From a virus (Duplodnaviria; Caudoviricetes): DNA of 64,000 bases. The stretch is taken from IMG/VR virus record IMGVR_UViG_3300046473_000190, positions 8,965-72,964 of that record, one strand, 5' to 3'. This document shows positions 2,757 through 46,917 of this stretch, piece after piece. Under the pieces are notes generated by a model. It made no database searches. It saw only the letters and a program-made list of their open reading frames with translations, and had not been told where the DNA came from. Both the position numbers and the translations under genes were made by a program. Each line of letters begins with the position of its first letter. The stretch's first letter is position 1.

Positions 2757-4544
2757 ATGACTGCACAATACATGATCGTTCCTGCTGCTGGTGCCGAGCC
2801 CGCTGATGAATGGGTAAAGCTTGGCGTCGAGGCGCAGATGGGCAACCGCCCTGCTGATGCCGCCCGTCACTACCTCAAGGCCCTCGGCATTGATCCATCG
2901 CACGTCATTGCGACGCTCAACCACGGCATTACCCTAGCTACCCAGGGCGACCTTAACCAGGGAATGCTGACGCTGGAACGCGCCATGCTGTTCGATGATA
3001 AATCGGCCGCCGTGCGAATGAATTATGCTATGATGTGCCTTAACGCAGGCCGCATCGACGAGGCCATGAAATATGGCGAACTCGCCATCGAGATGGGGAA
3101 AACCGACGAAGGGAACCTTGGCAAGACGGCTCCCAAACTGGTGATGGCGCTGATCCTGGGGGCTGCGGGTCATTCGGACAGAGCGGTTCCGCTGTATAAT
3201 GAAATTCTCGATGACGAACCGGATCACCTTCAGGCCGGAATGAATTCCTGTTTTGCGCAAACTTTGACGTTTGCCACACCGGAAGATTTGTTGCGGCAGC
3301 GCAAGCGGTTTTATGACTCCGTCAAGTTCAAGGGTACCGTCCGCCGGGTTCGCCACGACGAGGCATGGCCTCGTCCCTTGCGTGTTGGATATGTCGGGGG
3401 CGATTTCAAGCAGCATTCAGCCGCGATGATCTTCGGTAACGTATTGCTTAATCACGACAAAACGAGAGTCCTGCCGTATTTCTATTCGTCATTAGCGGTA
3501 AACCCGGATGCCGATCCGTGGTCGAAAGAGTTCAAGGCGGCGGCGGAAGACCGCTGGCGCGATATCGAAGGCAAGAGCGATGACGATACCGCTGACATGA
3601 TCCGCGACGACAAGATCGATATTCTGGTTGACATCGCCGCCCATACCAGTGGCGGACGATTACCGATATTCGTGCGGAAACCGGCCCCTATCCAGGTCAC
3701 GGCGTGGGGCTTTGCCCACGGGACGGGCGTGCCGGAAATCGACTACTTCTTTGCCGATGAGGTGTCCGTGCCGCAGGAGGAACGGCAGTGGTTTGCGGAA
3801 AAAATCTGGGATCTGCCGTGCCTGGTAACGTTCCGGAAGCCGAAATACGTGTTTAAGGAAAATTCGCTACTGCCGTATGCGGGTAATGGCTACATCACTT
3901 TCGGGTCATCGGCGCGTTACGAAAAGCTGTCCGAGGCGTGCCTGCGGTGTTTTGCCAAGATCCTGCATAGAGTGCCGGATTCTGTCTTGCGGCTGAAGGA
4001 TAGCGCCTATGGCAGGCCCTATTCGATTCGTCGGGTTCTCGACATCATGAAGGGGTTCGACATTGGGCGGGAAAGAATTCAGTTCATCATCGGCTCGAGC
4101 CATGAGGAGCACTTGCAGGGTTATCGCAACAGCGACTTGCAGCTAGACCCGTTCCCTCACGGCGGCGGCATTGTCAGCCTGGAGCAGCTTTACATGGGGC
4201 TGCCGATTATTACGCTCTATGGAACCCAATGCTCTGGCCGGAATACCGCAAGCGTGCTGACATGCATGGGGCGAGGCGACTGGATTGCCCGCTCGGAGGA
4301 CGAATACGTCGAAAAGGCCGTCGCATTGGCTAACGACATCGAAATGCTCCGATCCGCCAGAAAGACGCTGCGGAGCGAATTGATGGATTCGCCGGTGGTG
4401 AAAGACTATTGCAAGGTCGTCGAGCGGGCCTACCAGGCCATGTGGTGCAAGTATTGCGGCTATAATGTTCCGGCCGAGGATGCTAGTATGGCCGAGGAGC
4501 ACACCGTCGTAAGGCTTAAGACGAAGAAGGAGATGGCGGGATGA
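2757..4544 (+). CDS. TPR-containing O-GlcNAc/O-fucosyl transferase-like protein (GT41, OGT/SPINDLY family)
   Basis: N-terminal TPR-like helices; LRVGYVGGDFKQHSAA, DKIDILVDIAAHTSGGRL..FVRKPAPIQVTAWG, DLQLDPFPHGGG..SLEQLYMGLPIITL. Confidence 0.9.
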   Translation: MTAQYMIVPAAGAEPADEWVKLGVEAQMGNRPADAARHYLKALGIDPSHVIATLNHGITLATQGDLNQGMLTLERAMLFDDKSAAVRMNYAMMCLNAGRIDEAMKYGELAIEMGKTDEGNLGKTAPKLVMALILGAAGHSDRAVPLYNEILDDEPDHLQAGMNSCFAQTLTFATPEDLLRQRKRFYDSVKFKGTVRRVRHDEAWPRPLRVGYVGGDFKQHSAAMIFGNVLLNHDKTRVLPYFYSSLAVNPDADPWSKEFKAAAEDRWRDIEGKSDDDTADMIRDDKIDILVDIAAHTSGGRLPIFVRKPAPIQVTAWGFAHGTGVPEIDYFFADEVSVPQEERQWFAEKIWDLPCLVTFRKPKYVFKENSLLPYAGNGYITFGSSARYEKLSEACLRCFAKILHRVPDSVLRLKDSAYGRPYSIRRVLDIMKGFDIGRERIQFIIGSSHEEHLQGYRNSDLQLDPFPHGGGIVSLEQLYMGLPIITLYGTQCSGRNTASVLTCMGRGDWIARSEDEYVEKAVALANDIEMLRSARKTLRSELMDSPVVKDYCKVVERAYQAMWCKYCGYNVPAEDASMAEEHTVVRLKTKKEMAG

Positions 4545-8521: not shown

Positions 8522-9880
8522 ATGCCCGCCGCTCCCGGCACCATACCGGCACTGCCGCGATACCAGCCCGATGCCCTGCCGTTGGCTGGGACGGAGGTGT
8601 TGGAAATTGCTTCCAATTACACCGCTTACACGGCCGCGGTCAGCGGTGCCATGCCCCTGCAGGACGTGGTAGGCAAAACGCCGTCCATCATGTCAACCGC
8701 GGTTCCGGTTGCCGGCGACATGGTGGCCTTCTATCAACTGTCGAGCGGCCTGCCGAGGGCCTGCTCGGTTGCCAACCTTGGCGTTCCAGCCGGGAACATT
8801 CCGTCTGGTGGCTCGACCCATCAAGTCTTGGCCAAGAATAGCGCGACGAACTTCGATACGGGTTGGTACAGCACCATCAGCCTCCTGGCGACGGCGTTCC
8901 AGACCACGACCTTGACGCAGAATGGTATTCTATACGGCAATGGCACGTCTTTGCTGGGAATAACCCCACAGGGAACATCGGGTTATTTCCTGGGCGGCAA
9001 TGGCGCGGCGGCGCCGACATTCCAACAGGTCAACTTGACCACGGGCGCTACCGGCGTGCTGACGCAGACTTTTGGCGGCTTGGGCACGGCGTCCTTGGCC
9101 TCGCATGCGGTGATTCTCGGCAGCACGGGGGCGGCGGTGGCCGCAGCGGCACCAGGCAATGTCGGCCTCGCGCTGATTTCCAACGGCTCAACCAGCGATC
9201 CATCGTTTCAGGCGGTTCCGCTGACAACCGGGGTTTCCGGTGTGCTTCCGGTCGCCAACGGTGGCATCGGCACGTCTGTGCTAGCCTCACACGGGATTGT
9301 TCTCGGCAGCACAGGGGCCTATGCGGTCGTGCCGTCGACGACGGCCAACCTGTTTCTTGTCAGTGGCGGACCTACAGCCGACCCGATTTATACCACGGGC
9401 GGCTTTGGGCCAGCCGCCACGGCTGCGCTGGGCAACATTCCAGGCGCGACGGCCAGCACGCCGGCCGCAGCTGGCAGCATTGGCGAATATACGACGGCCA
9501 ATTTAACGTCCGGCGGGGCATTGAGCCTTTCGACCGCGTCAGTGGCGACGACGCTCATCAGCCTTGCGCTTGGTTCCGGCGACTGGAATGTGTTCGGTTC
9601 GGTGACGTATTTTGCCACCAATACCACAACCAACGCCAAGATACTCGCTGCGGCCGTAAATAACCTGTCCAATGCCCTGCCGAACTTCACCTCGGGTGCC
9701 ATCCATCAATTGGGTCTTGGCAGCGCGGGCTTGACCGCCATCCAAACAACCATTCTGCCCATCGGACCCGTGCAGTTCATTTCCAGCGCGGTACAAACGG
9801 CCTACCTTATTGCTGCGGTGAACTTCACTAACGCCACCATGGGCGGCTTCGGCGTTATTGCGGCAAGGCGGGCACGCTGA
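8522..9880 (+). CDS. tail fibre-like protein
   Basis: Repeats LTTG(A/V)(T/S)GVL..(T/A)(F/N)GG.GT..LASH...LGSTG; Ser/Thr/Gly/Ala-rich. Confidence 0.7.
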   Translation: MPAAPGTIPALPRYQPDALPLAGTEVLEIASNYTAYTAAVSGAMPLQDVVGKTPSIMSTAVPVAGDMVAFYQLSSGLPRACSVANLGVPAGNIPSGGSTHQVLAKNSATNFDTGWYSTISLLATAFQTTTLTQNGILYGNGTSLLGITPQGTSGYFLGGNGAAAPTFQQVNLTTGATGVLTQTFGGLGTASLASHAVILGSTGAAVAAAAPGNVGLALISNGSTSDPSFQAVPLTTGVSGVLPVANGGIGTSVLASHGIVLGSTGAYAVVPSTTANLFLVSGGPTADPIYTTGGFGPAATAALGNIPGATASTPAAAGSIGEYTTANLTSGGALSLSTASVATTLISLALGSGDWNVFGSVTYFATNTTTNAKILAAAVNNLSNALPNFTSGAIHQLGLGSAGLTAIQTTILPIGPVQFISSAVQTAYLIAAVNFTNATMGGFGVIAARRAR

Positions 9881-10602
9881 TGGCGTATGATTACACGGGA
9901 TATATCACTTCGCTTGGCGGCCTCATGGTTGTCGCCACGACGGACGTCAATTTCGCGCAGATCGTGCCGAATATCATTGATGACGCCGAACAGCGAATCT
10001 ACCGTGAACTTGACTTGCTCAATACCGTGGTGCGGGACTCGTCATCCGGATTTGCGCCGGGAACGCGCACGTTCAACCTTCCGGCCACGCTCGGCACATT
10101 CTACGTTGTCGATAGCCTCTATGCCATTACGCCTGCGTTGCAGACTACGCCGGACGCGGGCACGCGAAATATGCTGTTGCCGGTCAGCCGGTCGTACCTG
10201 GATGCCGCATTTCCCAGCATCAATGGGTCCGGCATGCCGACCTACTTCGCCATGACGACGCAAACCTCGCTCATTGTTGGCCCGTGGCCAGACGCGCTCT
10301 ATCAGGCGGAAGTCGTTGGAACCATCCATCCAGCGTCGTTATCGCCGACGAATACGACCACCATCCTGACCCAGTATCTGCCCGACCTGTTCTTGGCTGC
10401 CTCGATGGTGTTTGGCGCGGCTTATTTGCAGAATTACGGTGCCGCCCAAGCCGTGGACAACCCTGGCATGGGCATTACGTGGGAATCTCACTATCAGGCG
10501 CTGAAGCAATCCGCTGCGGTTGAGGAGGCTCGAAAAAAGTTCAACGCCGAGGGGTGGTCATCAAAGCAGCCATCACAGATTGCCACGCCCCCAAGGACAT
10601 AA
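9880..10602 (+). CDS. tail/adaptor structural protein
   Basis: NFAQIVPNIIDDAEQRIYRELDL, G.PTYFAM...LIVGPWPD, YLPDLFLAASMV; conserved podophage family (from memory). Confidence 0.65.
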   Translation: MAYDYTGYITSLGGLMVVATTDVNFAQIVPNIIDDAEQRIYRELDLLNTVVRDSSSGFAPGTRTFNLPATLGTFYVVDSLYAITPALQTTPDAGTRNMLLPVSRSYLDAAFPSINGSGMPTYFAMTTQTSLIVGPWPDALYQAEVVGTIHPASLSPTNTTTILTQYLPDLFLAASMVFGAAYLQNYGAAQAVDNPGMGITWESHYQALKQSAAVEEARKKFNAEGWSSKQPSQIATPPRT

Positions 10603-11310: not shown

Positions 11311-13344
11311 ATGCCCTATGGAGCCGTTCAACTCGTGCCTGGCGTGGATGTGGAGAGGACCCCTACCACGTCGAAGGCTGGCATTAATGTAAGCCAACTG
11401 ATTCGTTTCAGGGCGGGTATGGTTCAAAAACTGGGTGGCTGGTCCGCTTTGTATCCGAATGCCATCTCCGGAGTGCCGCGCGAACTGCACGCTTGGCAAG
11501 ACCTGAACTCCGTCGATCATCTCGGCATTGGCGCGACAACCGGTCTGTATGTGCTGACAAACGGCCAGCCGATCACCATTACGCCGCTGTCCACCACGAC
11601 GAACCCGGCCGTGAACTTCTCGACGGTCATGAATACTTCTGTCGTGACTATCGTCGATGCGGGGGCCACGAACCTGTCGACGGACGACATGGTCGTCCTT
11701 AATACGCCGGTTTCGGTCGGCGGAATTGTGCTATCGGGGGCCTATCCGATCGCCAGCGTAGGTGCGGGTTCCTACACGATTACGTCGGCTACGCCAGCGA
11801 CGGGAACCGTCAACAACGGTGGTGCCGTTCCGCTATTCACGACAACGAGCGGGTCCGATATTGTTACGGTTACCCTGAACGACCACGGGGTGGTTGCCGG
11901 AAGCTTTGTTGTCTTTACGGCATCAACGACCGGTAACGGCGTTACGATCCAGGGGCTGTATACGGTTCAGGCCAAAGTCGACATTAACAATTTTACCATC
12001 TCGATTGACGGTCTTGCCACGGCATCGAGCGGGTTTTCGATGAACGGCGGCAATGCGCAGTTCGTCTATTATCTTACGGTTGGACCGGCGGGCGCCTCAA
12101 TGGGTTATGGCGCGGGCGGGTATGGCAGCGGCGGCTATGGTGTCGGCACGACGACGGCCCAGACGGGTACGCCTATTACGGCTACCGATTGGACGAGCGA
12201 CAATTGGGGTGAGATTTATCTAGCCTGCCCGTCCGGTGGGCCGGTCTTTTCGTGGGATCCAACGACAGGTCATCAAACGGCCGGTCCCGTAAATGGTGCG
12301 CCGCCTTACAATGGCGGTATCTTCGTGTCCCAGACCCAGCAGATCCTCGTCTGTTGGGGGTCGACGGTGCCGGAAGCCATCGGTAGCGTCCAGGATCCTC
12401 TAACGGTTTCGTGGTCGACGGTCGGGGACTTTAATAATTTTCAAGTGCTGACGACGGACCAGGCTGGCAGTTTCCGCATTCCTATCGGTTCCAAGTGCAT
12501 GGGCGGGATGGCGGTAGCCAACCAGGATCTCATCTGGACCGACGTCGACGTCTGGGCGATGAACTACCTCGGGCCGCCTTTGGTGTTTGGGTTCAATAAG
12601 ATAGGTGGCGGTGCAGGATTGATTTCCTCGCATGCGGCGCAGCAATTGCGCGGCAATGTCTACTGGATGGGACCGTCCAATTTCTACTCGCTGACGACGA
12701 ATGGCGTGGCCGTCACGCCGTGCCCGGTCTGGGACTTCGTGTTTCAGAACCTCAATACAGCCTTTCAGCGGAACATTCGGGCGATGGCGAACACACCGTT
12801 TAACGAGGCCGGATGGCTATTCCCTTCGGCTGCCAGTGAAAGCGGGGAATGCGATAGCTACGTTAAATACAACATTGTGGAACAATGCTGGGATTACGGA
12901 ACCCTGCCGCGATCGGCATGGACTGACGAAAACGTCTACGGCAATGGCAACCCGATCGGGGCGACGCCGTCCGGGATTATTTATCAGCATGAGACGACAA
13001 ACGATGCCGCTGGAGGTCCGCTGGCGGCGAGTTTCACCACCGGATATTTCTATATCTCCGAGGGTGAGGATTTCGCCTTTGTCGACCAGATCCTGCCGGA
13101 TTTCAAATGGGGGTTCCTCGATGATGGCGCTGGTGCGCAAATCCAGTTGTCATTCAATGTGGTTAACTACCCTGGCGACACGCCGCAGACGTTCGGGCCA
13201 TACACCGTGACACAACAGACACAGTATATTATGGTGCGGTGCCGGGGTAGGCAGATGTCGTTCACGGTGGCATCGAACGATGTCGGAACGTGGTGGCGGC
13301 TAGGATACATTCGCTACCGTTTTGCTGCTTCCGGCAGGAGATGA
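11311..13344 (+). CDS. tail tubular protein B / DNA stabilisation (P22 gp10-like) protein
   Basis: 677 aa, beta-propeller-like content, LIRFRAGMVQKLGGW N-terminus; position before ejection genes. Confidence 0.7.
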   Translation: MPYGAVQLVPGVDVERTPTTSKAGINVSQLIRFRAGMVQKLGGWSALYPNAISGVPRELHAWQDLNSVDHLGIGATTGLYVLTNGQPITITPLSTTTNPAVNFSTVMNTSVVTIVDAGATNLSTDDMVVLNTPVSVGGIVLSGAYPIASVGAGSYTITSATPATGTVNNGGAVPLFTTTSGSDIVTVTLNDHGVVAGSFVVFTASTTGNGVTIQGLYTVQAKVDINNFTISIDGLATASSGFSMNGGNAQFVYYLTVGPAGASMGYGAGGYGSGGYGVGTTTAQTGTPITATDWTSDNWGEIYLACPSGGPVFSWDPTTGHQTAGPVNGAPPYNGGIFVSQTQQILVCWGSTVPEAIGSVQDPLTVSWSTVGDFNNFQVLTTDQAGSFRIPIGSKCMGGMAVANQDLIWTDVDVWAMNYLGPPLVFGFNKIGGGAGLISSHAAQQLRGNVYWMGPSNFYSLTTNGVAVTPCPVWDFVFQNLNTAFQRNIRAMANTPFNEAGWLFPSAASESGECDSYVKYNIVEQCWDYGTLPRSAWTDENVYGNGNPIGATPSGIIYQHETTNDAAGGPLAASFTTGYFYISEGEDFAFVDQILPDFKWGFLDDGAGAQIQLSFNVVNYPGDTPQTFGPYTVTQQTQYIMVRCRGRQMSFTVASNDVGTWWRLGYIRYRFAASGRR

Positions 13345-13345
13345 C

Positions 13346-13720
13346 ATGGCATCGGCCGACGAAGTCAATTCGACGCTCAAGAATCTCGTCAGCAATGTCG
13401 GGTTGCTTGTCAACGGCACGGCTTTGATTAATGCGGTTAACGCCATATCCAGCACATTGGCGACGTCGTTGGCGACGGTGCATGGTTTTGGCGGATCGGC
13501 AGTCATGCCGGCGGCAGTTGCTTCCGTGGTTATTGGCAACGCGCAGTTGGCCAGCACAGGGGTTATAAGTTTTTCACCTGGGAACACCGGGGCGGCCACG
13601 ACGGTTTTTACGGCCGGCGTATATGTCGGGCCGATTACGGCCGGAAGCTTCTCGCTGGTTGTCAATACCGGATCGTCTGTATCGTCCGGCTTATTCTACT
13701 ATGTCGGCTATAACCCATAA
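13346..13720 (+). CDS. hypothetical virion protein
   Basis: ATG 13346 after GGAG; tail operon. Confidence 0.55.
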   Translation: MASADEVNSTLKNLVSNVGLLVNGTALINAVNAISSTLATSLATVHGFGGSAVMPAAVASVVIGNAQLASTGVISFSPGNTGAATTVFTAGVYVGPITAGSFSLVVNTGSSVSSGLFYYVGYNP

Positions 13721-13732
13721 GGAGCACGACAA

Positions 13733-14386
13733 GTGCCGCTAAATAAGTCGGGTTCGGAAGGCGCGTTCAAGCAGAACGTCAAGACGCTGATGGGCGAGGT
13801 CGGCAAGTCGCCACATGTCCAAAGCCGCTCTCAGGCCCTCGCGATCGCATATGCCACCAAGCGGCGCGGTCGAGCCATGGGCGGAATTGCTTCCAACCCT
13901 TTCACGCTGCGCAATGTGGTACGGCGCGAGATGCATACGGGGCCGATCATGTCGGCCGTACCGGGACGTACCGACAAGCACGCGATGAACGTGCCCTCCG
14001 GTTCCTACGTCGTTCCCGCCGACGTCGTTTCGCATCTCGGGCAGAACAATACGTCCGCGGGCATGCAGGTTTTGCACAAGGAGCTCCACGGTGGTCCCTA
14101 TGGCGGACCGGGGGCTAAGACACCGAAGATAAAAGGGCTCGGGCTACCGAAGCCGCCCAAGATGTCGATGGCCAATAAGGGAGGACGCAAGAACGACCAT
14201 CATATGGGGTCGCCGGTTCCAGTCATGACGGCAGGCGGGGAGTACGTCATTCCTCCCGAGATTGTCCTGCAGTTTGGCAATGGTGATCTCAAGCGTGGTC
14301 ATGCTGAATTGGACAAACGCATCATGAACCTGCGAAAGAAGCACATTCAAACCCTCCGGAAGCTTCCGCCCCCGGCCAAATCATGA
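13733..14386 (+). CDS. basic putative core protein with xxGG motifs
   Basis: RBS TAAGGAG; GRTDKHAMNVPSGSYVVPADVVS and AGGEYVIPPEIV motifs. Confidence 0.6.
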   Translation: MPLNKSGSEGAFKQNVKTLMGEVGKSPHVQSRSQALAIAYATKRRGRAMGGIASNPFTLRNVVRREMHTGPIMSAVPGRTDKHAMNVPSGSYVVPADVVSHLGQNNTSAGMQVLHKELHGGPYGGPGAKTPKIKGLGLPKPPKMSMANKGGRKNDHHMGSPVPVMTAGGEYVIPPEIVLQFGNGDLKRGHAELDKRIMNLRKKHIQTLRKLPPPAKS

Positions 14387-14937
14387 CGGCAGCGTTACCC
14401 CCAGTACGTGTCGGGACGCGCGCAGACGAAGCGGACATGATGGCTTTGTGTCATGAACTCCACGAGGACAATGGCCTGTTCGAGATGGAGGATTCTAAGG
14501 TGCTGGAAATGCTCGATCGCGCCTATAATCGGCAGGGCGGTGTGATCGGCATCATCGACGGCGACGGCGAAATCGCGGGAGCCATCTACATGACAATATC
14601 GTCAATGTGGTATCGGTCCGTGGAACATCTCGAGGAATTATTCAATTTTGTCAGGCCAAAGTATCGGAATACGAAGGCTGCAAAAGCCTTGGTGCAGTTT
14701 GCCAAGACATGCAGCGACAAGACCGGGTTGCCTTTGATGATCGGCGTCGTCACGAACAAGCGGCTTGAGGCCAAAGTGCGGCTTTACCGGCAGGAATTGG
14801 GAATGCCGACGGGGGCATTCTTCATCTACGGCGTCAAGCAATGGGCGAACGAGAGCGTGATGGACCAGCGCGATTTGTGGCGCGTGCATCGCGGTAAGAA
14901 ACGTGGCAACGGCCACGCTGAATCTGAGGCAAAATAA
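14383..14937 (+). CDS. GNAT-like acetyltransferase in tail/ejection module
   Basis: LEELFNFVRPKYRNTKAAKALVQFAK acetyl-CoA-binding-like motif. Confidence 0.7.
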   Translation: MTAALPPVRVGTRADEADMMALCHELHEDNGLFEMEDSKVLEMLDRAYNRQGGVIGIIDGDGEIAGAIYMTISSMWYRSVEHLEELFNFVRPKYRNTKAAKALVQFAKTCSDKTGLPLMIGVVTNKRLEAKVRLYRQELGMPTGAFFIYGVKQWANESVMDQRDLWRVHRGKKRGNGHAESEAK

Positions 14938-17900
14938 ATGGGTATACCCGCCAAAACTGGGAATTCGTCTACCGGCCCCAGCGCATCGGGGACTGCTGCG
15001 CTTAATTCTGTGCTGCCGCAGGTTCAGCAATACCTCAATCCGGCGACCAATCCCTACACCCCAGTTTTTCAGCAAAGCGCTCAACAGAATCCTGAGCAGT
15101 TGTCGGCGGTGGGAAATTACAATACCGCCTTCGGGGCGGCCAATACGGGACTTGGTACATACGGGGAGGCACAGTCGCTTGCCGAAGGCGCGGCACAGCC
15201 GCTTACGCAGGCCGAGATCGACCAGTATTTTAATCCGTATGTGAACGATGTCGTTAATGCGGCGCAACGACAATTTACTCTGCAAAATGCGCAGCAGCAG
15301 AACCAAGTGGTTGGCAACGAGACGGCGCAGGGAGCGCTGGGAGGAAATAGAACTGCGGTTGCGGGAGCCCTAACGGCCGGACAACAGGCGGCGGCAGAAG
15401 ATCCGATTATCGCCGGAATGCTGCAAGCGGGCTACACGCAGCAGGAAGCAATGGCCGCCCAGCAATACCAACAGATACCGTTAGCTGCCGCGTCGGCATT
15501 GCAAGGGATTGGTGCCGGTCAGGAAGGTGCGGCTGGCAATATAGCCAATTTGGGCATGGGCCAATACGGCCTTGGCACTCAACAGCAGCAATATTATACG
15601 CCGGGAGCGCCAACTACAGCCACGTTAAATGCGCTCTATGCCGAGCAACTGGCCAAGTATGGCTATCCGATCCAGCTTACGAATATGGCGGCCGGTGACA
15701 TTGGCGGTCTCGCCGCAGCCTATGGCTCTAATACCACGACGACGCCGCCCCCGCCCAGTCTTATCAGCGGTTTGGCTGGTGCTGGTACTTTCGGGTTGGG
15801 ATTGGGCGCATTGGGGCAGGCGGGTGCCTTTGCGCCACTTGCGGCTATGATTTCGACGGGCGGTCGTGTGCAGGGCAGGCGCGCGGGCGGCGCGGTTCTT
15901 CCGGAATCGCCTAGGACATTGCATGCTCAGCAACGGCAATTGCTTGAGGGACATCGCCGCGTGCAGATGTTCCCGCATGGCAGCAAGGAGTTGTCCTTGC
16001 CGTCCGGCATGCGTCGCGTCGAGGCACATAGCGGCGTGTTCCACTATAATCCGGATAAGGTTTCCGAGGCTGAAATACACAAGCATGCCAAGGCGGGAAC
16101 AGAGCATCATTTGCTGGATCTCGGCCCTTATTCCAAGCAGGACATCATGCACCGCGTTCGGGGCGGTGAAGCCCCTGTCGCTGTTGTCGAGCGGCATCCT
16201 GATGGGACCGAGGTGCGTGCTGCAGTTGGAACGCGTGTTACGGCGGCCGAACAGGCTGCGCATATGGAGCGCACGAAGTCGCCCGGACATCGCATTCACG
16301 TCGAGGATGTTCGCCATACACTAGCCAAGCGGGCAGACGGCGGCCGCGTGCAGGGGTTACTGACAGGCGGCGTTCCGGCAATGCCCTATGGCGCGAGCCC
16401 CATGAGTGGTCTTGGGCCGGTGCCTTATGCTGGCGGCGGCAGCTACGTTCCACAAGGCGCGGTAGTGAATATTCCAAGGCCGCAGGCTGCGCCGCCCATG
16501 CCGGAGCAGCAAGACGACGCCTCCAAGATGTTCACGCAGGCGCTGCAAATGTCTAAGCTGGGCAGCGGTAGCGGTAGCGGCCCAGGACTGGCGACAACGC
16601 TAGCCAACAAGTTTGATCCATTCAGTGAGGCCGATCTGAATTATGCGGCGGAGATGTCGTCCGCAGGCGGACGGGTGCCGCGCGCTTATGGCGGCTTGGC
16701 TACGCCATCGTCCAATCGCATCAATGTGCCGATGCGCGGCGGCTTCGGCATGCCGTCATTTATGTCGCGTGGCGGATTAGCAGAGGGTGGCACGCCGGAT
16801 GATGACATAGCGACGGCGGGCTTGGTAGCAGCAGCGGATACAGGCTTGGCGTCAGAGTTCGCTGGTCCGCCGCAGCAGGTTGCGGCATTAAATACTCCCG
16901 CCACCGCTCCCGCCGCGTCCGGTCCCACGCCTGGGCTGGTAGCGGCACCACCCGTGACTGCCGATGTTCCATTGCCACAGCCTCGGCCAAAAGAAGCTGA
17001 TGAACCACCTAAGCCCTGGCGGGTAGCCGCCAATGAATGGACGAAGGCTGGCATGTCGGAGAACGGCGTGGCTGGCGTGCTTGCCAACGTCAAGGACGAG
17101 AGCAATTTCGACTCGACGTTGCGTCACCCTGATCAGCCGCACTGGGGCGGTGAGGCCCATTTTGCGCACGGATTGTACCAAGAGGGTGGCCAGGAGTGGA
17201 ACAATTACGCCAACTGGCTGCGGAATACGCATCCAGGCGCGGATTGGCGAGATCCAAAGCTTCAGTCCGAGTTTACTGCACAAAACCTCAAGAACAACTA
17301 TCCCCAAGTCTGGGACAAGATGGCCAATGCCAAGACCAAGGAAGAAGCCGCCCAGGCTTTCGTTTCCGGTTATCTGAAACCTGCCGCTCACTTTGAGAAT
17401 GCCCGTCTGAGCAAGTATGCCGCCGGCGTTCCCGATTCTGAGGACTACGAAAAGATGGCATTCAACACCACGCCTGTTGGCCAACAGCGTGGGTTAATGA
17501 CTACGACGACCGACGCAGGCGGCATCCCCGGCGTAACGCCAATCAAAGCATCGGATATTTCCGGCAAGGCCAAGCCAGACAAGACCGACATTGCGTTGTC
17601 GCTGATGGCGGCGGGCCTTGGCATGATGGGGTCGCGTTCGCCGTATGCCGGTGTGGGTATCGGCCAAGGCGGATTGCAGGGCATCGGGACTTACGAGGCG
17701 TTGCATAAGCAGCGGGTGGGCGAGGCTGAACATCAAGCGCAGTTGGAGATGAATGCTGCCGCCCTCAATCAGCATCCGCAGATGCAGCAGCTACTTTTTG
17801 CGCAACAGAAAGCGCAGCAGGAACGGCTATTCGCGCAACAGCAGCAAATGGAAGAAAAGAAGGCTGCGGATGTACGCGCCTTAGAGGCAATGAAGGAATC

Positions 17901-19026
17901 GAAACAGCCTCGCACTATTGTCGACTCACAGACTGGCATGGTTCGCAATGTTGTTCCGCGAGGGGATGGTACGTTTGAAGATATTATGACCCATGATGTT
18001 ATAGGGACGCCAAGGGGGCAAACGCCGACCCCGACGCAGACGCCCCGGAATCCGACGCAACCAATGCCGTCTAATCCGCGCAATGCTTCGGTTACCGCGC
18101 CCACTCAATTGGTAAGCGCCGATCCTGGATTTAGGGTGAGAAATAGCCAATTCGTCGAATCCGGTCAAAGTTTTAACTATGCCAGCGGTGATACGCCTCA
18201 CATTGAAAAGGGTATGGTTGTTCCAGAACCGCAGGCGATTGGCGGCAATTCCGTCGATTCGCTAAAGACCGATGCAAAGACTTATCTGCAGACAGGTAAA
18301 TTGCCGCCGGTTAGCAGGGGCGCGAGCCCGGTAGCCGTTTCCCAGCAAGCTTATCAGCGAGCAGTCAAGAATTACGCCAATGCTGTGGCGTCGTCTCTTG
18401 GCATGACACATGATCAAGTTGCCGAGACAATGCGGCAAGGCGGGATGATGCCCCGGTTTATCTTGGGTCCGGCTGGGCAGGCCACGGTGTCTCTCGGCAC
18501 TGCGGTCCGGCATCTGGATACGCTTAGGGAATTCGCAAAGGCGTGGGATGCGAATGACGTTCAAACGGTTAATCGTCTGCGCACCACAATTTCCAGAGAA
18601 TTCGGTGATGATGCGGCGACGAATCTTGACACGGTCGGCAAGATTGTTGGACCGGAAATCATCAAGGCCATTGGTGTTGCCGGGGCAGGAACGGCAGAAG
18701 AGCGCGCAGGGGCGGCAGCGCAATTCAGCACTATAGCCAGCGGCAAGCAGATGCTAGGGGCCATTGACGTTACACAGAAACTGCTTAGTGGTCAGTTAGA
18801 AGGCAAGAAGCGACAGGCGGCGGCATCCGGGGTCTCCGAGGAGACATTCAAGAACCTTATCGGTGATCGGCCTTATGAAATCCTAACGGGTATCGATAAG
18901 GGAACGACGAAGGAAACAGAAGGCGCGCAAGCCGCCCCGAGTGCGCCAAAAGTTGGCGATGTTGTTAAAGGGTATAAATTCAAGGGGGGCAATCCGTCCG
19001 ACAAGAATAATTGGGAAAAACAGTAA
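14938..19026 (+). CDS. large internal virion/ejection protein with phage tail lysozyme-like domain
   Basis: Gln/Ala/Gly-rich pilot-like N-terminus; GMSENGVAGVLANVKDESNFD...HGLYQ...AAQAFVSGYLKP at about 17030-17390. Confidence 0.75.
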   Translation: MGIPAKTGNSSTGPSASGTAALNSVLPQVQQYLNPATNPYTPVFQQSAQQNPEQLSAVGNYNTAFGAANTGLGTYGEAQSLAEGAAQPLTQAEIDQYFNPYVNDVVNAAQRQFTLQNAQQQNQVVGNETAQGALGGNRTAVAGALTAGQQAAAEDPIIAGMLQAGYTQQEAMAAQQYQQIPLAAASALQGIGAGQEGAAGNIANLGMGQYGLGTQQQQYYTPGAPTTATLNALYAEQLAKYGYPIQLTNMAAGDIGGLAAAYGSNTTTTPPPPSLISGLAGAGTFGLGLGALGQAGAFAPLAAMISTGGRVQGRRAGGAVLPESPRTLHAQQRQLLEGHRRVQMFPHGSKELSLPSGMRRVEAHSGVFHYNPDKVSEAEIHKHAKAGTEHHLLDLGPYSKQDIMHRVRGGEAPVAVVERHPDGTEVRAAVGTRVTAAEQAAHMERTKSPGHRIHVEDVRHTLAKRADGGRVQGLLTGGVPAMPYGASPMSGLGPVPYAGGGSYVPQGAVVNIPRPQAAPPMPEQQDDASKMFTQALQMSKLGSGSGSGPGLATTLANKFDPFSEADLNYAAEMSSAGGRVPRAYGGLATPSSNRINVPMRGGFGMPSFMSRGGLAEGGTPDDDIATAGLVAAADTGLASEFAGPPQQVAALNTPATAPAASGPTPGLVAAPPVTADVPLPQPRPKEADEPPKPWRVAANEWTKAGMSENGVAGVLANVKDESNFDSTLRHPDQPHWGGEAHFAHGLYQEGGQEWNNYANWLRNTHPGADWRDPKLQSEFTAQNLKNNYPQVWDKMANAKTKEEAAQAFVSGYLKPAAHFENARLSKYAAGVPDSEDYEKMAFNTTPVGQQRGLMTTTTDAGGIPGVTPIKASDISGKAKPDKTDIALSLMAAGLGMMGSRSPYAGVGIGQGGLQGIGTYEALHKQRVGEAEHQAQLEMNAAALNQHPQMQQLLFAQQKAQQERLFAQQQQMEEKKAADVRALEAMKESKQPRTIVDSQTGMVRNVVPRGDGTFEDIMTHDVIGTPRGQTPTPTQTPRNPTQPMPSNPRNASVTAPTQLVSADPGFRVRNSQFVESGQSFNYASGDTPHIEKGMVVPEPQAIGGNSVDSLKTDAKTYLQTGKLPPVSRGASPVAVSQQAYQRAVKNYANAVASSLGMTHDQVAETMRQGGMMPRFILGPAGQATVSLGTAVRHLDTLREFAKAWDANDVQTVNRLRTTISREFGDDAATNLDTVGKIVGPEIIKAIGVAGAGTAEERAGAAAQFSTIASGKQMLGAIDVTQKLLSGQLEGKKRQAAASGVSEETFKNLIGDRPYEILTGIDKGTTKETEGAQAAPSAPKVGDVVKGYKFKGGNPSDKNNWEKQ

Positions 19027-21233
19027 TGGCCGAGGATGGGCCATGGAATGATTTTACGTCTGCGGCTGACGACGGGCCGTGGAAGGATTTTGCGTCGCCA
19101 AAATCCGCCCCGCATTTGATGCCGCATACAGTTGGCGAGGCCGTCAGTGGCGCGGCTGCGCCAATAATGGACATTCCCTCGACTTACCAGGAAACAATCA
19201 AGGGGTCTCTCGAACGGGCTGGGCATGGTGTCGAGCAGATTAAAACCGGACAGCCGTGGGAGGTTGCCAAAGGTGCCGGCAACATTGCATTAGGCGGTCT
19301 TGGCTATCTCACTGCCCCGATCAGTGCCCCGCTGCACAGCATTGTTAACAAGCCGATTGCAACAGCTACTAAGCCGGTTCTTGGTGAAGCCGGTAGCGAG
19401 TTTGCGGGCAACCTAGCCGAAGCTGGGGCAGGGTTTGCCTTACCGGTTCCCAAAGGTATTCCTCGCATGGCCAAGGCCTTGCCGGAAGAAGTCGGCTTTG
19501 GCGTTACCGGGAGCGAGGCGGATCTGACGGGTGTAGGCCGCCAGATCGAACAAAATGCCATTCGCAATAGAAAACCGCAGGCTACGGCGTGGGCGGAGCA
19601 ACGAGAGGATCAACTCGCGCGATCCAGGAATATTGTCGCCGAAGGGTTGCATCCTGAAGGCGAACAACTTGCCACGACACCGCAGGAAGCCGGGACGTCA
19701 GTTTCAAATATCGTTCAGCAGGCGGAGCAGAAAGCAAAATCCGGCGTTGATGCGCTCTACAAGACTGCCGCCGACCAGCCGGGAATGATCCATCGCCGTG
19801 TTTTTGAGGGCATTGGTGACGATATCAAAGCCGATCTGTATCAAGCCGAAAATCCAGTCGTTGTGTCAGAAATAACGACACCGCACGCCTCGCAAATGGT
19901 GGATTATCTTGACAATAAGATTTCCGCATTACTTGCACCCAGAAATAAGGCGATCCCGGCACCAACGGAAACTATTGCGGGCATTAACCTGAATGGTGTC
20001 GATCAATTGCGGAGAGAACTTGCGACGTTCCGTGACGCTTCTTTCCGTGGCGGAACGGGTGCGGACCAAACTGCGACGCAAGAGGTTTTGAAGGCGTTTG
20101 ACAAGCGAGTTGATCAAGCGGTCAATTCGCCGTTGTTTACGGGCGACGCAAAAGCGATTCAAGCGTGGAACGATGCACGGGCCGCGCATGCCGATTACCG
20201 TTCCACGTTCGGCGGCGGACGGTCGCGAGATCCGGTCGGCAAGGTCGTGCAGAACATTCTGGGTGACAACGTTAAGGAGCCGATGGAGCCAACCAAGGTT
20301 ATCGACCAACTGAGTAAGATTGCGGTAGCAAACCGTGTTAAGACTATTGTTGGGGGCGATGGTTCGCCCGGATGGACTGCCGTCAAGCAAGCGACATTCC
20401 GTGATCTTGTGGAAGCGGGCGAGGGTCAGACTGCTTTTGGCACGGCCAAATCGGCAGAACGACTCAGTAAATTCCTCAATAGCGATGCCGCAGCGGTAAT
20501 GTATTCACCGGCAGAGACGGCGACCCTGCGCGAATATGCGGCCATGCTGCGCCGGATTACGCCACGCCGGGGGGAATATCAACCATCAGCGCCTGGGATT
20601 ACCGATGCTATTGGTACGATCACAAAACGAATTGCAGCAGGGATTGGGGCGGCTATAGGCTACAAATTGACCGGGGGAGTCGGCGGGGAACTCGCTGGGG
20701 CAGCCGTCGGTCATGGGGTTGAAACCGCTCATCAGGCAATGCTAGCGCGGCTTTCTAGGCGCCTTCCATTGGTTGCCCCGCAGATGCAACAATGGTCGCG
20801 CGCTCAGTCGGCGTTAGCTGCGGCTAAGAATGCGCCAACCGCTCCTGACTTGGCTATCCGTGCCGCCCGCGCGTCGTCGGCGCTGGAAAAGACCTTGTCA
20901 GGGATTGAACAGGAATTTCGGATGCTGCAATCGCCGGCTCCGGCAGGCGCAGGCGAGCAGAACCAACAGAACGTTCCAGGGCCACCACCCCAAAAGAAAC
21001 ACGGCGGCCGCATAGGCGAAAAGCAAAACCCTGCCCATGGCGGTCATATAAGGGAAAAATTTAAACTATCCCACGCCTCAGTCGGCTACATGGCCCAGTC
21101 TACCCACTTGCCGCAAAAGTGCAGCGGATGTATCATGTTCCTGCCCCAGTCAGGGTGTACGCTTGTGCAATCGCCCATCAAAGCAGGTGGATGGTGTCGG
21201 CGGTTTGAGACGCGAAAAGGAGGGACGCGATGA
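19026..21233 (+). CDS. internal virion/ejection protein with C-terminal HiPIP-like 4Cys domain
   Basis: Helical body, N-terminal GPWNDF/GPWKDF repeat; C-terminal C-x2-C-x8-C-x12-C with GWC. Confidence 0.7.
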   Translation: MAEDGPWNDFTSAADDGPWKDFASPKSAPHLMPHTVGEAVSGAAAPIMDIPSTYQETIKGSLERAGHGVEQIKTGQPWEVAKGAGNIALGGLGYLTAPISAPLHSIVNKPIATATKPVLGEAGSEFAGNLAEAGAGFALPVPKGIPRMAKALPEEVGFGVTGSEADLTGVGRQIEQNAIRNRKPQATAWAEQREDQLARSRNIVAEGLHPEGEQLATTPQEAGTSVSNIVQQAEQKAKSGVDALYKTAADQPGMIHRRVFEGIGDDIKADLYQAENPVVVSEITTPHASQMVDYLDNKISALLAPRNKAIPAPTETIAGINLNGVDQLRRELATFRDASFRGGTGADQTATQEVLKAFDKRVDQAVNSPLFTGDAKAIQAWNDARAAHADYRSTFGGGRSRDPVGKVVQNILGDNVKEPMEPTKVIDQLSKIAVANRVKTIVGGDGSPGWTAVKQATFRDLVEAGEGQTAFGTAKSAERLSKFLNSDAAAVMYSPAETATLREYAAMLRRITPRRGEYQPSAPGITDAIGTITKRIAAGIGAAIGYKLTGGVGGELAGAAVGHGVETAHQAMLARLSRRLPLVAPQMQQWSRAQSALAAAKNAPTAPDLAIRAARASSALEKTLSGIEQEFRMLQSPAPAGAGEQNQQNVPGPPPQKKHGGRIGEKQNPAHGGHIREKFKLSHASVGYMAQSTHLPQKCSGCIMFLPQSGCTLVQSPIKAGGWCRRFETRKGGTR

Positions 21234-21790: not shown

Positions 21791-22291
21791 ATGGGACGAT
21801 CTATCGGCATCCTGATTGTGTTCGGGATTGTACTCGTCATCATCGTATTCGTGGCGCTGGCCTTCGGGTCTGCTCTGCCGGGTGATGCCCGCGATCTCGG
21901 TCAATGGGAGGATAGCGACCCTGCGGTGAAGGCTTGGTTTCAGGCTCTAGTACAGCCCGATACAATTGTTCCCGGTAGTCCAGGCACATCGTGTTGTGGC
22001 GAGGCCGATGCATATTACGTCGATGTCAGCGTGCAGCGGGACCGGATTATAGCGACGATCAGCGATGACCGCGACGATAAAAAGTTACAGCGGTTTCATG
22101 AGAAAAATGGCACGCAGTACGTGGTGCCGCCAGCCAAGATTGTCGGTGCAGAGCAACGGGCGGGCAATCCGACTGGTCGCGCCGTGATATTTCTGGGATC
22201 GGTAAGTTTAGCTTTTCCCGGCGAGGCGGTGACGGGGGATCGGAGTAAGCAACGTCAAGTATTATGCTTTGTCGATAACAGCGCGTTTTAG
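21791..22291 (+). CDS. exported or membrane-anchored hypothetical protein
   Basis: N-terminal hydrophobic helix; SCCGEAD motif. Confidence 0.6.
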   Translation: MGRSIGILIVFGIVLVIIVFVALAFGSALPGDARDLGQWEDSDPAVKAWFQALVQPDTIVPGSPGTSCCGEADAYYVDVSVQRDRIIATISDDRDDKKLQRFHEKNGTQYVVPPAKIVGAEQRAGNPTGRAVIFLGSVSLAFPGEAVTGDRSKQRQVLCFVDNSAF

Positions 22292-22306: not shown

Positions 22307-22690
22307 TTGTCACCTCGGAATGCTTATATGTGGCCCATGGACTGGTGGATCTCAGACACTGACCAAATCCTGGTCGCGATTGCCAGATTACAGTCTGCCG
22401 TGAGTGCTCTGCAAAGAAGCGTAAACTCAGTCCTTCAAAAGGAGAATCAAATGGCTATCGACCTTACTAGCATGACCGCAGAGGTGGCAAATAATACCAG
22501 TGTTACCGGTTCGGTTGTGACGCTTTTGAACAACCTGACCGCGATTATCAAGGCCATTCCGCCATCGACGGACCCGGTCACGCAGGCGGCTCTTGACGAG
22601 TTGTCCACGACGCTTGCCGCAAACGACACGGCCGCGGCCGCAGCTGTTGTGCAAAATACGCCCAGCGCGTCGGCAAAGGCCCCTCGGTAA
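22307..22690 (+). CDS. hypothetical coiled-coil protein (start uncertain, internal AAGGAG-ATG at 22451)
   Basis: ORF track; helical heptads. Confidence 0.5.
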   Translation: MSPRNAYMWPMDWWISDTDQILVAIARLQSAVSALQRSVNSVLQKENQMAIDLTSMTAEVANNTSVTGSVVTLLNNLTAIIKAIPPSTDPVTQAALDELSTTLAANDTAAAAAVVQNTPSASAKAPR

Positions 22691-22691
22691 C

Positions 22692-23171
22692 GTGCATACC
22701 AGCGACGCGGGCAGGAAGTTCATCGAAGGGTGGGAAGGTTTATACCTTCACACCTACGATGACGGCACTGGGGTTCTAACCATCGGCTATGGTCACACCT
22801 CGGCGGCTGGTCCGCCGCACGTCTACCATGGCATGACGATTACGGCAGCGCAGGCTGACCAGATTCTCGCGTCCGATTTGGCCGCTGTGGAACTTGACGT
22901 TAATCATTTCGTCAAGGTGCCAATCAATCAGAACCAATATGATGCTCTTGTCAGCTTTGACTTCAACACGGGGGCGCTCGGGCGATCCAATGTGCTGCGT
23001 TCGGTCAATTCCAATAGATTCACGGAAGTTCCCGCCGACCTGATGATGTGGGTCCGTGGCGGCGGCCGTGTTATGCAAGGACTTGTCAACCGCCGGAGGG
23101 CCGAGTCAATACTGTTCATGAAGCTAATGGCACCTGCCTTGGGAGGCAAAACAGCTCGTCGTGAACGATGA
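22692..23171 (+). CDS. GH24 lysozyme (endolysin)
   Basis: FIEGWEG..L..YDDGTGVLTIGYGHT, NQNQYDALVSFDFNTG, GLVNRRRAE; GTG start inferred. Confidence 0.92.
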   Translation: MHTSDAGRKFIEGWEGLYLHTYDDGTGVLTIGYGHTSAAGPPHVYHGMTITAAQADQILASDLAAVELDVNHFVKVPINQNQYDALVSFDFNTGALGRSNVLRSVNSNRFTEVPADLMMWVRGGGRVMQGLVNRRRAESILFMKLMAPALGGKTARRER

Positions 23172-44506: not shown

Positions 44507-44696
44507 CCGACCCACTAGGGATGAGATTGTCAAGGTGTTGCGCGATCTTGGCAACCTGCCTGCAGGCAAGTCCTATTGGGGGCCGGGAGATGGTCCAGAC
44601 AATGACGGAATGTGGTGTATCGATTGGGTAGGATGGCCGATTTCTGATTATTTACTAGCGGCGGCTGACGAGATCGAGAAAGCGAAAGATGGCTGA
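44499..44696 (+). CDS. hypothetical protein
   Basis: AAADEIE motif shared with preceding ORF. Confidence 0.5.
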   Translation: MADRPTRDEIVKVLRDLGNLPAGKSYWGPGDGPDNDGMWCIDWVGWPISDYLLAAADEIEKAKDG

Positions 44697-46917
44697 CCCG
44701 GCCCAAGGAATTAGCGTTGTCATCGGCGATGATGAAGCCGATCCGGTCCGGATTGATCCGGTTACCGGCACGGTGGAGCACGATCAGGCCGACGGCAGCG
44801 TTATTGTCGAACTGGACAAGGTACGGAAGAATCGGGAAGGGCAGGCCTTCGACGCTAATCTGGCCGAGAGGATGGACGATAACGAGCTTTCCCGCATTGG
44901 CAACGAATTGCACCAGGCTATTTCGGACGATAACGATTCCCGCGGGAACTGGCTCGAGATAAGGGCGCGGATTATTGATTTCTGTGGCCTGCAGATCAAG
45001 GAGCCGCGGGCCAATGTGGGCGATACGTCAGCGGCCGTCGAGGGGATGTCCACGGTAACCAATCCCTTGTTGCTCGAAGGCATATTGAAGGGATGGGCTA
45101 ATGCCCAAGCGGAACTTCTCCCGAGCGAAGGTCCAGCCAAGATCGACGAACAAGACCACGAAACGCCGCAAAGCGATGAACTCGCGGAGGCATTGGAACG
45201 CGATTTTAATTACTACCTCACGGTCACGGCCACGGAATATTATCCGGATACCAGTCACATGCTCTTGTGGGGTGTCTATCTTGGAGGGTCTGGATTTAAG
45301 AAGATTTATCGTTGCCCTATGCGACGACGTCCCGTCTCCGAAAGCGTTAGCCCTGAAAATCTCATAGTTTCTGATACCATGAAGGACATGCGATCGTGTG
45401 CGCGCATTACGCACCAGATCGAAATGCGCCAGTCCATCATGCAGCGCATGAAGCTTTTGGGGGCCTATCGAGATACGCCGGCCACGACGCCGTCGCCGCC
45501 GACATCGACTGCGGTGGCGCAAGCGGTTGCGGGTGTTCAGGGAACCAGTCCGTCGCCGAGCGGGAAGCGGGAAGCGGATCGGCCATACATGCTTTGGGAA
45601 TGCCAATGCGAACTTGATTTGCCGGATTATGCGCCCAGCGGGTTCAAGGGCGAGGGCATTCCGTTGCCGTATCTGGTGACGCTGGACAAGGACAGCCGGG
45701 AGGTCTTGGCAATTCGCCGGGATTGGAACGAGGACGATGAGGACGCGCAGAGAAAGAGGCTCTACGTCAAGTATCCTTATGTTCCGGGCCCTGGTTTTTA
45801 CGGCACTGGTCTTGGGCATATTCTTGGTAATTGCTCTGCTGCAATGACGGCGGCCTGGCGTGAGGCGCTGGATGCGGGGATGTTTGCGAATTTCCCGGCG
45901 TTTCTGTTGGCAAAGCTCGGTGGCCGGCAAAATACGTCCGATTATCGTCTGGCGGCCGGGACCGGCACCGCCATCGAAACCAATGGCATGCCGATCGGCA
46001 ACGTAGTGACCAACCTGCCGTATCGCGATGTCACGTCCGGATTATTGACCCTGATCGACAAGATTACCGCGCAGGCGAAGGAACTTGGCGGCACGGCCGA
46101 CATTCCGGCCTCGGAGGGTGTGGCCAATGTGCCGGTAGGAACCATGCTGGCGTCGATCGAGCAGGCGACGAAGGTCATGAGTGCCGCCCACAAGGGCATG
46201 CATCAGGCGCAGGCCGAAGAATTGCAGATGCTGGTGGACTTGTTTCGCGATCATCCGGAAGATTTTTGGCAACAGAACAAGAAATGCAAAGGATTTTGGG
46301 ATGAAGCCAAGTTCAGGGCCGCCCTGGAGAATTGCTCCTTGGTGCCGCGAAGCGATCCGAACACTCCCTCGCACATCCATCGTGTTGCCAAGGCACTCGC
46401 CTTGGTTCAGATGCTCAACTCACCGGCCTTGGCTCAAGTCATGTCGGCCAAAGAGGTTGCTTTACGGGCGCTGGCCGTGTTGCGGGAGGATCCGACGAAC
46501 CTGATTGTCGACCCGATGCCGCAGCCTGCGGGCGGGCAGGGAGCCGCGGCCGACCCGTTGGTCGGGCAGGCGCGCATGCTGTCGGCGCAAGCGCAGATTG
46601 CCAAAGTGCAGCAGGAGGGCCAGCAGGGTCAGATCAAGACGCAATTGGATCAGCAAAAACTGCAGGTCCAGAAGGATATCGCCACATCGCAATTGGCGCG
46701 CGAGTTCGTCATTCATCGCGGCGATCAGGTTAAGGAAGAGGCGGCGCAGCAGCATGTGCAGCATGAGGCCGATCGCGAACATGGGCTGGGAACGGCGCAA
46801 TACGGACTCGATGTTGCCCGGCTGGGGTACGAACGGCAACAGGCCGACAGGGAACACGCCCTGAATGTTCACGAGGCATTGAATCCGCCGGAACCCGCCA
46901 AGCCGAAAAGCAAATGA
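44689..46917 (+). CDS. portal protein
   Basis: 742 aa after TerL; HPLL-like NPLLLEG, GSGFKKIY, FVKY-like YVKYPYVPGPGFYGTGL, Gln-rich barrel tail. Confidence 0.85.
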   Translation: MADPAQGISVVIGDDEADPVRIDPVTGTVEHDQADGSVIVELDKVRKNREGQAFDANLAERMDDNELSRIGNELHQAISDDNDSRGNWLEIRARIIDFCGLQIKEPRANVGDTSAAVEGMSTVTNPLLLEGILKGWANAQAELLPSEGPAKIDEQDHETPQSDELAEALERDFNYYLTVTATEYYPDTSHMLLWGVYLGGSGFKKIYRCPMRRRPVSESVSPENLIVSDTMKDMRSCARITHQIEMRQSIMQRMKLLGAYRDTPATTPSPPTSTAVAQAVAGVQGTSPSPSGKREADRPYMLWECQCELDLPDYAPSGFKGEGIPLPYLVTLDKDSREVLAIRRDWNEDDEDAQRKRLYVKYPYVPGPGFYGTGLGHILGNCSAAMTAAWREALDAGMFANFPAFLLAKLGGRQNTSDYRLAAGTGTAIETNGMPIGNVVTNLPYRDVTSGLLTLIDKITAQAKELGGTADIPASEGVANVPVGTMLASIEQATKVMSAAHKGMHQAQAEELQMLVDLFRDHPEDFWQQNKKCKGFWDEAKFRAALENCSLVPRSDPNTPSHIHRVAKALALVQMLNSPALAQVMSAKEVALRALAVLREDPTNLIVDPMPQPAGGQGAAADPLVGQARMLSAQAQIAKVQQEGQQGQIKTQLDQQKLQVQKDIATSQLAREFVIHRGDQVKEEAAQQHVQHEADREHGLGTAQYGLDVARLGYERQQADREHALNVHEALNPPEPAKPKSK

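Follow-up and report, generated by a model that had tools for sequence, protein, structure and literature searches.

A predicted HiPIP-type [4Fe-4S] domain forms an exchangeable C-terminal cassette on a putative ejection protein of an SU10-like podovirus

Introduction

High-potential iron-sulfur proteins, or HiPIPs, shuttle electrons in the periplasm of phototrophic and lithotrophic bacteria. Among the known ejection proteins of podoviruses (SU10, T7, P22) we know of none with an iron-sulfur (Fe-S) domain. This report concerns a predicted HiPIP-type [4Fe-4S] domain at the C terminus of a 735-residue phage protein, hereafter the carrier, which is encoded at 19026-21233 (+) in a stretch of DNA from IMG/VR record IMGVR_UViG_3300046473_000190 (Duplodnaviria; Caudoviricetes). 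The window, that is the whole stretch of DNA analysed, has 64,000 nucleotides (positions 8,965 to 72,964 of the record), and all coordinates refer to it; the source record has 72,964 bp and is rated 100% complete by IMG/VR. In an initial annotation, made from the letters of the window, the C-terminal peptide had been read as a HiPIP-type domain fused to a putative ejection protein.

Several described systems come close to this locus. PioC of Rhodopseudomonas palustris TIE-1 is a periplasmic carrier (PMC10304953). An Fe-S cluster with no known redox role is present in the tail-tip proteins of siphophages, the lambda gpL family (PMC10721106). In the Escherichia podovirus SU10, mass spectrometry detected gp20-24, encoded by the final five genes of the structural operon, in virions and showed their loss upon genome release; a transglycosylase is among them (PMC9509320). 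Polyvalent proteins are large late proteins encoded in or near virion modules with exchangeable cargo domains (PMC5512222), and InPase, ART-PolyVal and LPD23 are hallmark domains of the phage type (Iyer, Burroughs, Anand, de Souza, Aravind 2017, PMC5512222).

Results

The predicted HiPIP-type domain was located at 21063-21209 (+), residues 680-728 of the carrier, and has no signal peptide. Its predicted cluster ligands span 21120-21197 (+) and are Cys699 (21120-21122), Cys702 (21129-21131), Cys711 (21156-21158) and Cys724 (21195-21197); these are the only cysteines of the entire carrier (735-residue numbering), and all lie within the tail. The domain is followed by a short, basic C-terminal end with the stop codon (21210-21233, +), and the 56-residue tail holds eight Lys or Arg residues against one Asp or Glu. 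The peptide quoted in the initial annotation is the exact translation of 21063-21233 (+) and the in-frame C terminus of the open reading frame (ORF), whether this begins at 19011 or at 19026.

The cysteine spacing of the tail, C-x2-C-x8-C-x12-C, is the same as in PioC. Searched with phmmer against 177,635 PDB sequences, the 60-residue tail alone matched PioC at E=1e-8, over 48 of the 54 residues of PioC (residues 4-51), followed by two further HiPIPs. The HiPIP-type tail proposed from the cysteine pattern was thus borne out by a match far above chance. A search with hidden Markov models against HiPIPs, which had been suggested as a check, also matched: a profile of five orthologous tails found PioC at E=3e-13 and then three other HiPIPs among the PDB sequences, and a profile of 68 relatives found PioC at E=8e-19, with only other HiPIPs after it. 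Behind PioC, the solved HiPIPs in these profile searches were 3H31, 1ISU and 1HLQ, and by sequence the best solved relative of the tail is PioC. The four cysteines and Tyr688, which belongs to a Gly-Tyr motif, were invariant through the 68-sequence alignment. Aromatic residues that shield the cluster were also present, Tyr688, Phe705, Trp723 and Phe727 aligning with Tyr, Phe, Trp and Tyr of PioC. Run over the 72,964-bp genome, our own HiPIP profile gave exactly one site, the carrier tail. No PHROGs family was found for the tail or for its 68 relatives.

An AlphaFold2 model of the tail built from the 68 sequences had a predicted local distance difference test score (pLDDT) of 86.9; a model from five sequences only had a pLDDT of 44 and was discarded. 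With Foldseek, all 18 matches to the PDB were HiPIPs, with TM-scores up to 0.75-0.77, so that structure prediction, the second check suggested at the outset, likewise pointed to the HiPIP fold. The best fold matches were the Rhodothermus marinus HiPIP (3h31; TM-score 0.75, root-mean-square deviation (rmsd) 1.4 Å) and PioC (rmsd 1.3 Å, 39% identity). As judged from sequence and predicted structure, the tail is a genuine HiPIP-fold domain, PioC-like and without a signal, whose four cysteines most likely bind a single [4Fe-4S] cluster, although we only infer the metal content. No twin-arginine translocation (Tat) signal was found in the 735-residue carrier. Since the domain lacks such a signal and is not free-standing, it is to be classed as a member of the HiPIP fold or superfamily and not as a canonical periplasmic HiPIP.

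The domain was found to be patchily distributed among relatives of the carrier. Of 39 homologs with 30-50% identity over the whole protein, only four had a C-terminal HiPIP tail, which makes 5 of 40 orthologs when the carrier's own sequence cluster is counted. The remaining homologs end just past a Pro/Gln-rich Gly-Gly linker or run into other tails, including InPase. In two orthologs the HiPIP domain is N-terminal, and other HiPIP-bearing proteins share the carrier body together with InPase, the relatives having InPase and/or HiPIP at either end. The relatives of the carrier body in Methylobacterium prophages lack the HiPIP domain.

The sharpest evidence of mobility came from a close relative, contigs L073 and L074. 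Their DNA resembles the window only in an island of 143 bp at 21063-21205 (+; 83% identity) and from 21506 on (85%); upstream of the island no similarity was seen. The HiPIP tails are 78% identical as protein, the 567-residue body of the L073/L074 protein is essentially unrelated to the carrier body, and the gene downstream is 85% identical to that at 21791-22291. The mosaic junction lies exactly at the N-terminal boundary of the domain, which therefore behaves as a cassette. On these sequence comparisons, the HiPIP tail is an autonomous, exchangeable and accessory cassette that does not belong to the fold of the carrier itself. The opposite view, of a domain fixed in the structure of the carrier, was considered and rejected, given the patchy and position-independent distribution and the mosaic junction.

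Two further features were seen around the exchangeable tails. Where the HiPIP tail would be, five orthologs of the carrier (P0007, P0013, P0019, P0020 and P0039) end in a different short module of about 25 residues, conserved and basic, rich in Lys and Arg and with Trp-Tyr and Pro-Gly-Lys, which may be another exchangeable cargo. In the region 14938-21062 and in its homologs, Gly-Gly-Arg-Val and His-Gly-Gly motifs separate the modules of a 1362-residue protein encoded upstream and precede the HiPIP domain. Motifs of the Gly-Gly type were found upstream of 17 of 70 HiPIP domains as compared to 10 of 163 control windows, and may be processing sites or simple linkers.

The wider family of the domain is large. 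Searched against 1.84 billion cluster representatives, the profile of five tails matched 3,370 with E<=1e-3, of which 268 had E<=1e-10; signal-less or fused proteins made up most of the best 150 profile matches. The cluster names carried no information on hosts. Architectures were counted in 155 domain-bearing proteins, the best of the 3,370 profile matches together with orthologs of the carrier. Signal-less solo proteins of about 55-110 residues (70/155) were as frequent as fusions (70/155), the latter consisting of C-terminal fusions (40/155), internal domains (24/155) and N-terminal fusions (6/155). The others had tandem domains (4/155) or a PioC-like Tat signal (11/155). In a quick tree with weak supports, most Tat-type proteins fell into one cluster and the domain of the carrier into a separate, fusion-dominated clade. 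Three Tat-signal proteins with two tandem HiPIP domains (P0044, P0062, P0085) formed a compact clade with good support within the bacterial-type members. In IMG/VR, a search with the single tail gave no close relative. With a narrow peptide pattern, 58 contigs of IMG/VR were picked up; the domain was solo in 14 ORFs there and otherwise embedded within long proteins.

Fusion partners of the domain include InPase, ART-PolyVal and LPD23. In another lineage, a 1905-residue InPase-HiPIP-LPD23-ART protein occupies the slot of the carrier, after a protein of more than 1000 residues and before the lysis genes. The long HiPIP-bearing proteins of the pattern-found contigs include P22-like portals and one Phage_portal protein. 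In the P22-like portals (L041, L045, L054, L055, L059 and L062) the HiPIP domain is inserted internally, flanked by acidic linkers, between segments that align to residues ~12-237 and 270-540 of P22 gp1. This insertion implies twelve putative Fe-S clusters per portal, which would be fixed on the portal inside the head. In BFVD, phage proteins containing the fold carry the automatic names prohead protease, XkdF, SppA/ClpP protease, ParB/sulfiredoxin and Zeta toxin. What the proteins bearing the module share is the capsid interior, as portal, maturation protease and internal or ejection proteins. Solo copies were found in phage small-gene arrays, between terminase and an unannotated 828-residue gene, or in replication modules.

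InPase, where fused, in most cases directly precedes HiPIP. In polyvalent-type phage proteins, an InPase domain followed by HiPIP after a linker of about 12 residues was recurrent (P0047, P0053, P0090, P0110, P0113, P0131 and L035:3527-6301), and this didomain may reflect a functional coupling of pyrophosphatase-like and cluster domains. Two giant viral proteins (L069:2267-6376 and L070:1537-7488) have a glucosaminidase and/or a C39-like peptidase with the HiPIP module just downstream; these are probable virion-associated cell-wall hydrolases with the same cassette.

The carrier gene begins, as a mechanical ORF, with TTG at 19011 (19011-21233, +; 740 residues). The ATG at 19026 is the likely start, since it overlaps the upstream stop codon (TAA) by one base, and the product then has 735 residues. 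The carrier body (19026-20975, +; about residues 1-650) contains a Gly/Ala-rich hydrophobic stretch at 20631-20720. It is joined to the domain by a Pro/Gln/Gly-rich linker (20976-21062, +), in which two His-Gly-Gly motifs (residues 659-661 and 671-673) directly precede the domain. The body belongs to a family without matches in Pfam or PHROGs, and against PDB sequences it gave only noise. In GenBank phages, tblastn with the whole carrier or with the tail alone gave no match. Homology of the body to P22 gp16, P22 gp20 and SU10 gp23 was rejected for want of significant profile similarity, and an ESM-atlas lead to a cluster containing P22 gp16 was not confirmed.

Based on its structural module, predicted from sequence, the uncultured phage is an SU10-like podovirus. 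It has a head-tail adaptor of the SU10 type (9880-10602, +; family match), a portal of the SU10 type (44689-46917) and, in the structural module, a collar-domain fiber. A nozzle- or hub-like virion protein of 677 residues (11311-13344, +) belongs to phrog_3287, relatives of which are annotated as phage stabilization protein and come from podoviruses of Caulobacter, Roseobacter, Pelagibacter and others. Between the nozzle gene and the endolysin gene (22593-23171, +; Phage_lysozyme), which marks the lysis cassette after the structural block, lies a block of five genes with the carrier as the last. The number agrees with the five ejection proteins gp20-24 of SU10, and in SU10-like podoviruses this is the block for ejection proteins packaged in the head. 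Its first three genes are small (13322-14937, +) and encode proteins of 132 and 217 residues and a GNAT acetyltransferase of 184 residues, and the fourth encodes the giant upstream protein of 1362 residues with a Phage_lysozyme2 domain (14938-19026, +). A syntenic GenBank record, MW202675, has the same gene order, and there the counterpart of the 1362-residue protein is named internal virion protein D.

The carrier gene therefore sits after the nozzle/hub genes and adjoins the gene of a cell-wall hydrolase, as podovirus ejection proteins do, and its slot at the end of the structural operon, behind a giant lysozyme-bearing protein, is conserved in several lineages. Gene position and comparison thus support the carrier as a putative ejection (internal virion) protein. 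The initial annotation as an ejection protein stands as far as gene order and the polyvalent-protein domains of orthologs and positional equivalents are concerned, but homology to a proven ejection protein was not found.

Other genes of the phage were also noted. The GNAT acetyltransferase gene (14383-14937) lies within the post-nozzle, ejection-type block and at the same place in MW202675; its product may be an enzyme delivered by the virion. A 166-residue protein, for which no family match was found, is encoded at 21791-22291, after the ejection block and before the endolysin; it has a membrane anchor at its N terminus and a Cys-Cys motif. A protein with TPR repeats and a GT41 (OGT-like) glycosyltransferase (2757-4544) is encoded among the tail and fiber genes. 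A cytidylyltransferase fused to a PfkB kinase (53185-54558), a radical SAM/SPASM protein (58103-59422) and a family-1 glycosyltransferase (60128-61252) look like a sugar-modification cluster, and the radical SAM/SPASM protein is a second Fe-S protein in this phage.

Discussion

HiPIP clusters are air-stable. Considering the homology, fold, ligand conservation, mobility, patchy distribution and recurrent attachment to capsid-interior proteins described above, we think it rather probable that the module is a virion-carried, autonomous, accessory redox or cluster-bearing cargo, where packaging, ejection and redox role of the module are what we infer. The host ISC/SUF machinery would insert the cluster in the cytoplasm of the producing cell, and the carrier would be packaged in the capsid interior. 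The air-stable cluster would survive the extracellular phase, and at the next infection the carrier would be released from the head together with the DNA. Acting in the newly infected cell, or before that within the capsid, the module would be an accessory one-electron redox or cluster-bearing unit and not an essential structural piece. An intracellular role is favoured by the partners that need cytoplasmic substrates together with the solo copies.

Several points weigh against this proposal. The Pfam HIPIP model scored the 80-residue tail at E=0.041 and 14.6 bits, below its gathering threshold of 22 (profile positions 27-65/66), did not match the full carrier protein and gave no site over the whole virus genome (72,964 bp). 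The model reaches E<=0.01 in 30 of the 68 short relatives, and the miss is a limit of its sensitivity, not a structural criterion. With hhalign, the carrier body reached a probability of only 7% against SU10 gp24 and below 1% against P22 gp16, P22 gp20 and SU10 gp23; having no homology to a proven ejection protein, the carrier is assigned to the virion by synteny and analogy. The proposal would also require a folded cluster domain to pass through the tail channel of a podovirus. Domains in the middle of a portal are not easily delivered, so that at least some copies would act inside the capsid, and the solo copies in replication-type modules would mean that some act in the cytoplasm. No one role yet fits every context.

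The fusions to capsid-interior proteins also fit another role, in which the module would be a redox guard or sensor beside the packed DNA instead of acting as an effector in the next host; it could, for instance, quench oxidative DNA damage by giving up an electron, or report oxidation to the portal or the ejection machinery. The fusion partners are all of the capsid interior (portals, prohead proteases, internal proteins), the insert between residues ~237 and 270 of gp1 cannot leave without splitting the portal, and the air stability known for the family would suit such a role. However, solo copies occur in non-structural gene arrays, the frequent partners InPase and ART-PolyVal need cytoplasmic substrates (PMC5512222), and a contact between domain and DNA is only supposed. 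We regard a role confined to the capsid lumen as rather unlikely.

A purely structural staple, in which the four cysteines would hold a metal (Fe-S, or Zn in vivo) and stabilise a tiny knob or plug without any redox function, would agree with the very small and basic domain and with the tail-tip clusters of the gpL family, which have no known redox role (PMC10721106). The position of the domain is variable, though (C-terminal, N-terminal, internal or solo), and most orthologs lack it. The domain retains the aromatic shield that is characteristic of redox-active HiPIPs, and from what is known of the family the HiPIP ligand geometry suits a cubane cluster and not tetrahedral Zn. Such a staple is disfavoured because of the patchy and position-independent distribution, and we give it a low probability.

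The relation to PioC, the nearest characterised relative and a periplasmic carrier (PMC10304953), suggests a further role, mimicry of a host protein. After ejection into the periplasm, the domain would dock to the bc1 complex, the reaction centre, a terminal oxidase or a PioA-like cytochrome, thereby positioning the ejection conduit at the inner membrane or draining electrons. The neighbouring protein and some other carriers bear peptidoglycan hydrolases, which act in the periplasm. Relatives of the body are found in Methylobacterium prophages, and relatives of the nozzle infect mostly other Alphaproteobacteria, where PioC-type proteins occur. Docking may apply to this phage of alphaproteobacterial type, but it would leave the broad host spread of the domain unexplained: the hosts of phages with the module differ widely, a Synechococcus myovirus and P22-like phages being examples, and to our knowledge canonical HiPIP partners are not expected in those hosts. 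The Tat-type proteins, moreover, lie mostly apart from the fusion-dominated clade of the carrier, in the quick tree with its weak support, and we find docking of this kind improbable. Equally improbable is a late cytoplasmic carrier outside the virion, with the HiPIP tail as an auxiliary electron carrier in the infected cell only, which would fit the missing homology to proven ejection proteins and the solo copies in early or replication modules but not the slot that several lineages conserve for it at the structural operon's end, behind the giant lysozyme-bearing protein, the InPase of the orthologs, a domain regarded as virion-packaged (PMC5512222), or the direct fusion of the module to portals.

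The proposal of a virion-carried accessory cargo bears on more than this one phage. In the literature, no paper was found that describes HiPIP domains in phages, portals or polyvalent proteins, and an iron-sulfur or HiPIP module is not mentioned in the main text of the polyvalent-protein paper (PMC5512222). The absence of a described case, as put in the initial annotation, thus holds for the literature searched, but the automatic annotation of UniProt already gives a few phage proteins the HiPIP profile label. Here the HiPIP fold is a signal-less, shuffled cassette on proteins of the phage-head interior, which would be a new compartment for the family and would widen the set of modules on virion-delivered polyvalent proteins by one that bears a cofactor. 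If they do contain the cluster, virions would carry redox-active iron, with a bearing on phage survival in oxidative environments, on the build of ejection proteins and on iron in viral particles. As a speculative extension, and one we would not expect to hold, many tailed-phage lineages would have air-stable HiPIP [4Fe-4S] modules in the capsid interior, on ejection proteins, portals and maturation proteases, and these would be an unrecognised redox component of the virion. Such modules could protect or monitor the packed genome, for instance by quenching oxidative DNA damage with an electron or by switching genome release in response to oxidation, or they could be delivered as a redox effector during entry. 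The proposal is readily testable, with a domain of about 55 residues, a cultured phage, S-SRM01, with a solo copy, and the distinctive ultraviolet-visible and electron paramagnetic resonance signatures of HiPIPs.

In comparison with the known systems, the tail shares its fold, its cysteine spacing and about 39% identity with PioC, the 54-residue HiPIP of R. palustris TIE-1 (PDB 6XYV). It superposes on the short HiPIPs 6XYV (PioC), 3H31, 1ISU and 1HLQ with an rmsd of 1.3-1.8 Å, with conserved Gly-Tyr, Phe and Gly-Trp-Cys positions. Unlike PioC, it lacks a Tat signal, is a C-terminal cassette of a 735-residue phage protein and not free-standing, and has a Met two residues past the second cysteine, typical of the phage group. 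The same signal-less module is found in Synechococcus phage S-SRM01 (QPX48026.1; UniProt A0A879R316, automatically named HiPIP profile domain-containing protein; TM-score 0.82, rmsd 1.1 Å, 33% identity). That copy differs: it is a solo gene of 67 residues, lies among small genes close to a helicase and an HNH endonuclease in a cyanomyovirus of 241 kb, and is not fused to a virion protein.

The orthologs and positional equivalents of the carrier bear the InPase, ART-PolyVal and LPD23 domains of polyvalent proteins, whereas the carrier itself has one recognisable cargo domain and no metallopeptidase. Its gene has the same post-nozzle place as those of SU10 gp20-24, T7 gp14-16 and P22 gp7, gp20 and gp16, and here as there one member carries a peptidoglycan hydrolase. 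With SU10, the phage of the carrier shares the portal and adaptor families, without significant similarity of the carrier body. The gpL family shows that a virion protein of a phage can hold an iron-sulfur cluster, but its cluster has an unrelated fold, a tail-tip position and a fixed place as a conserved structural part, in contrast to the HiPIP cassette described here.

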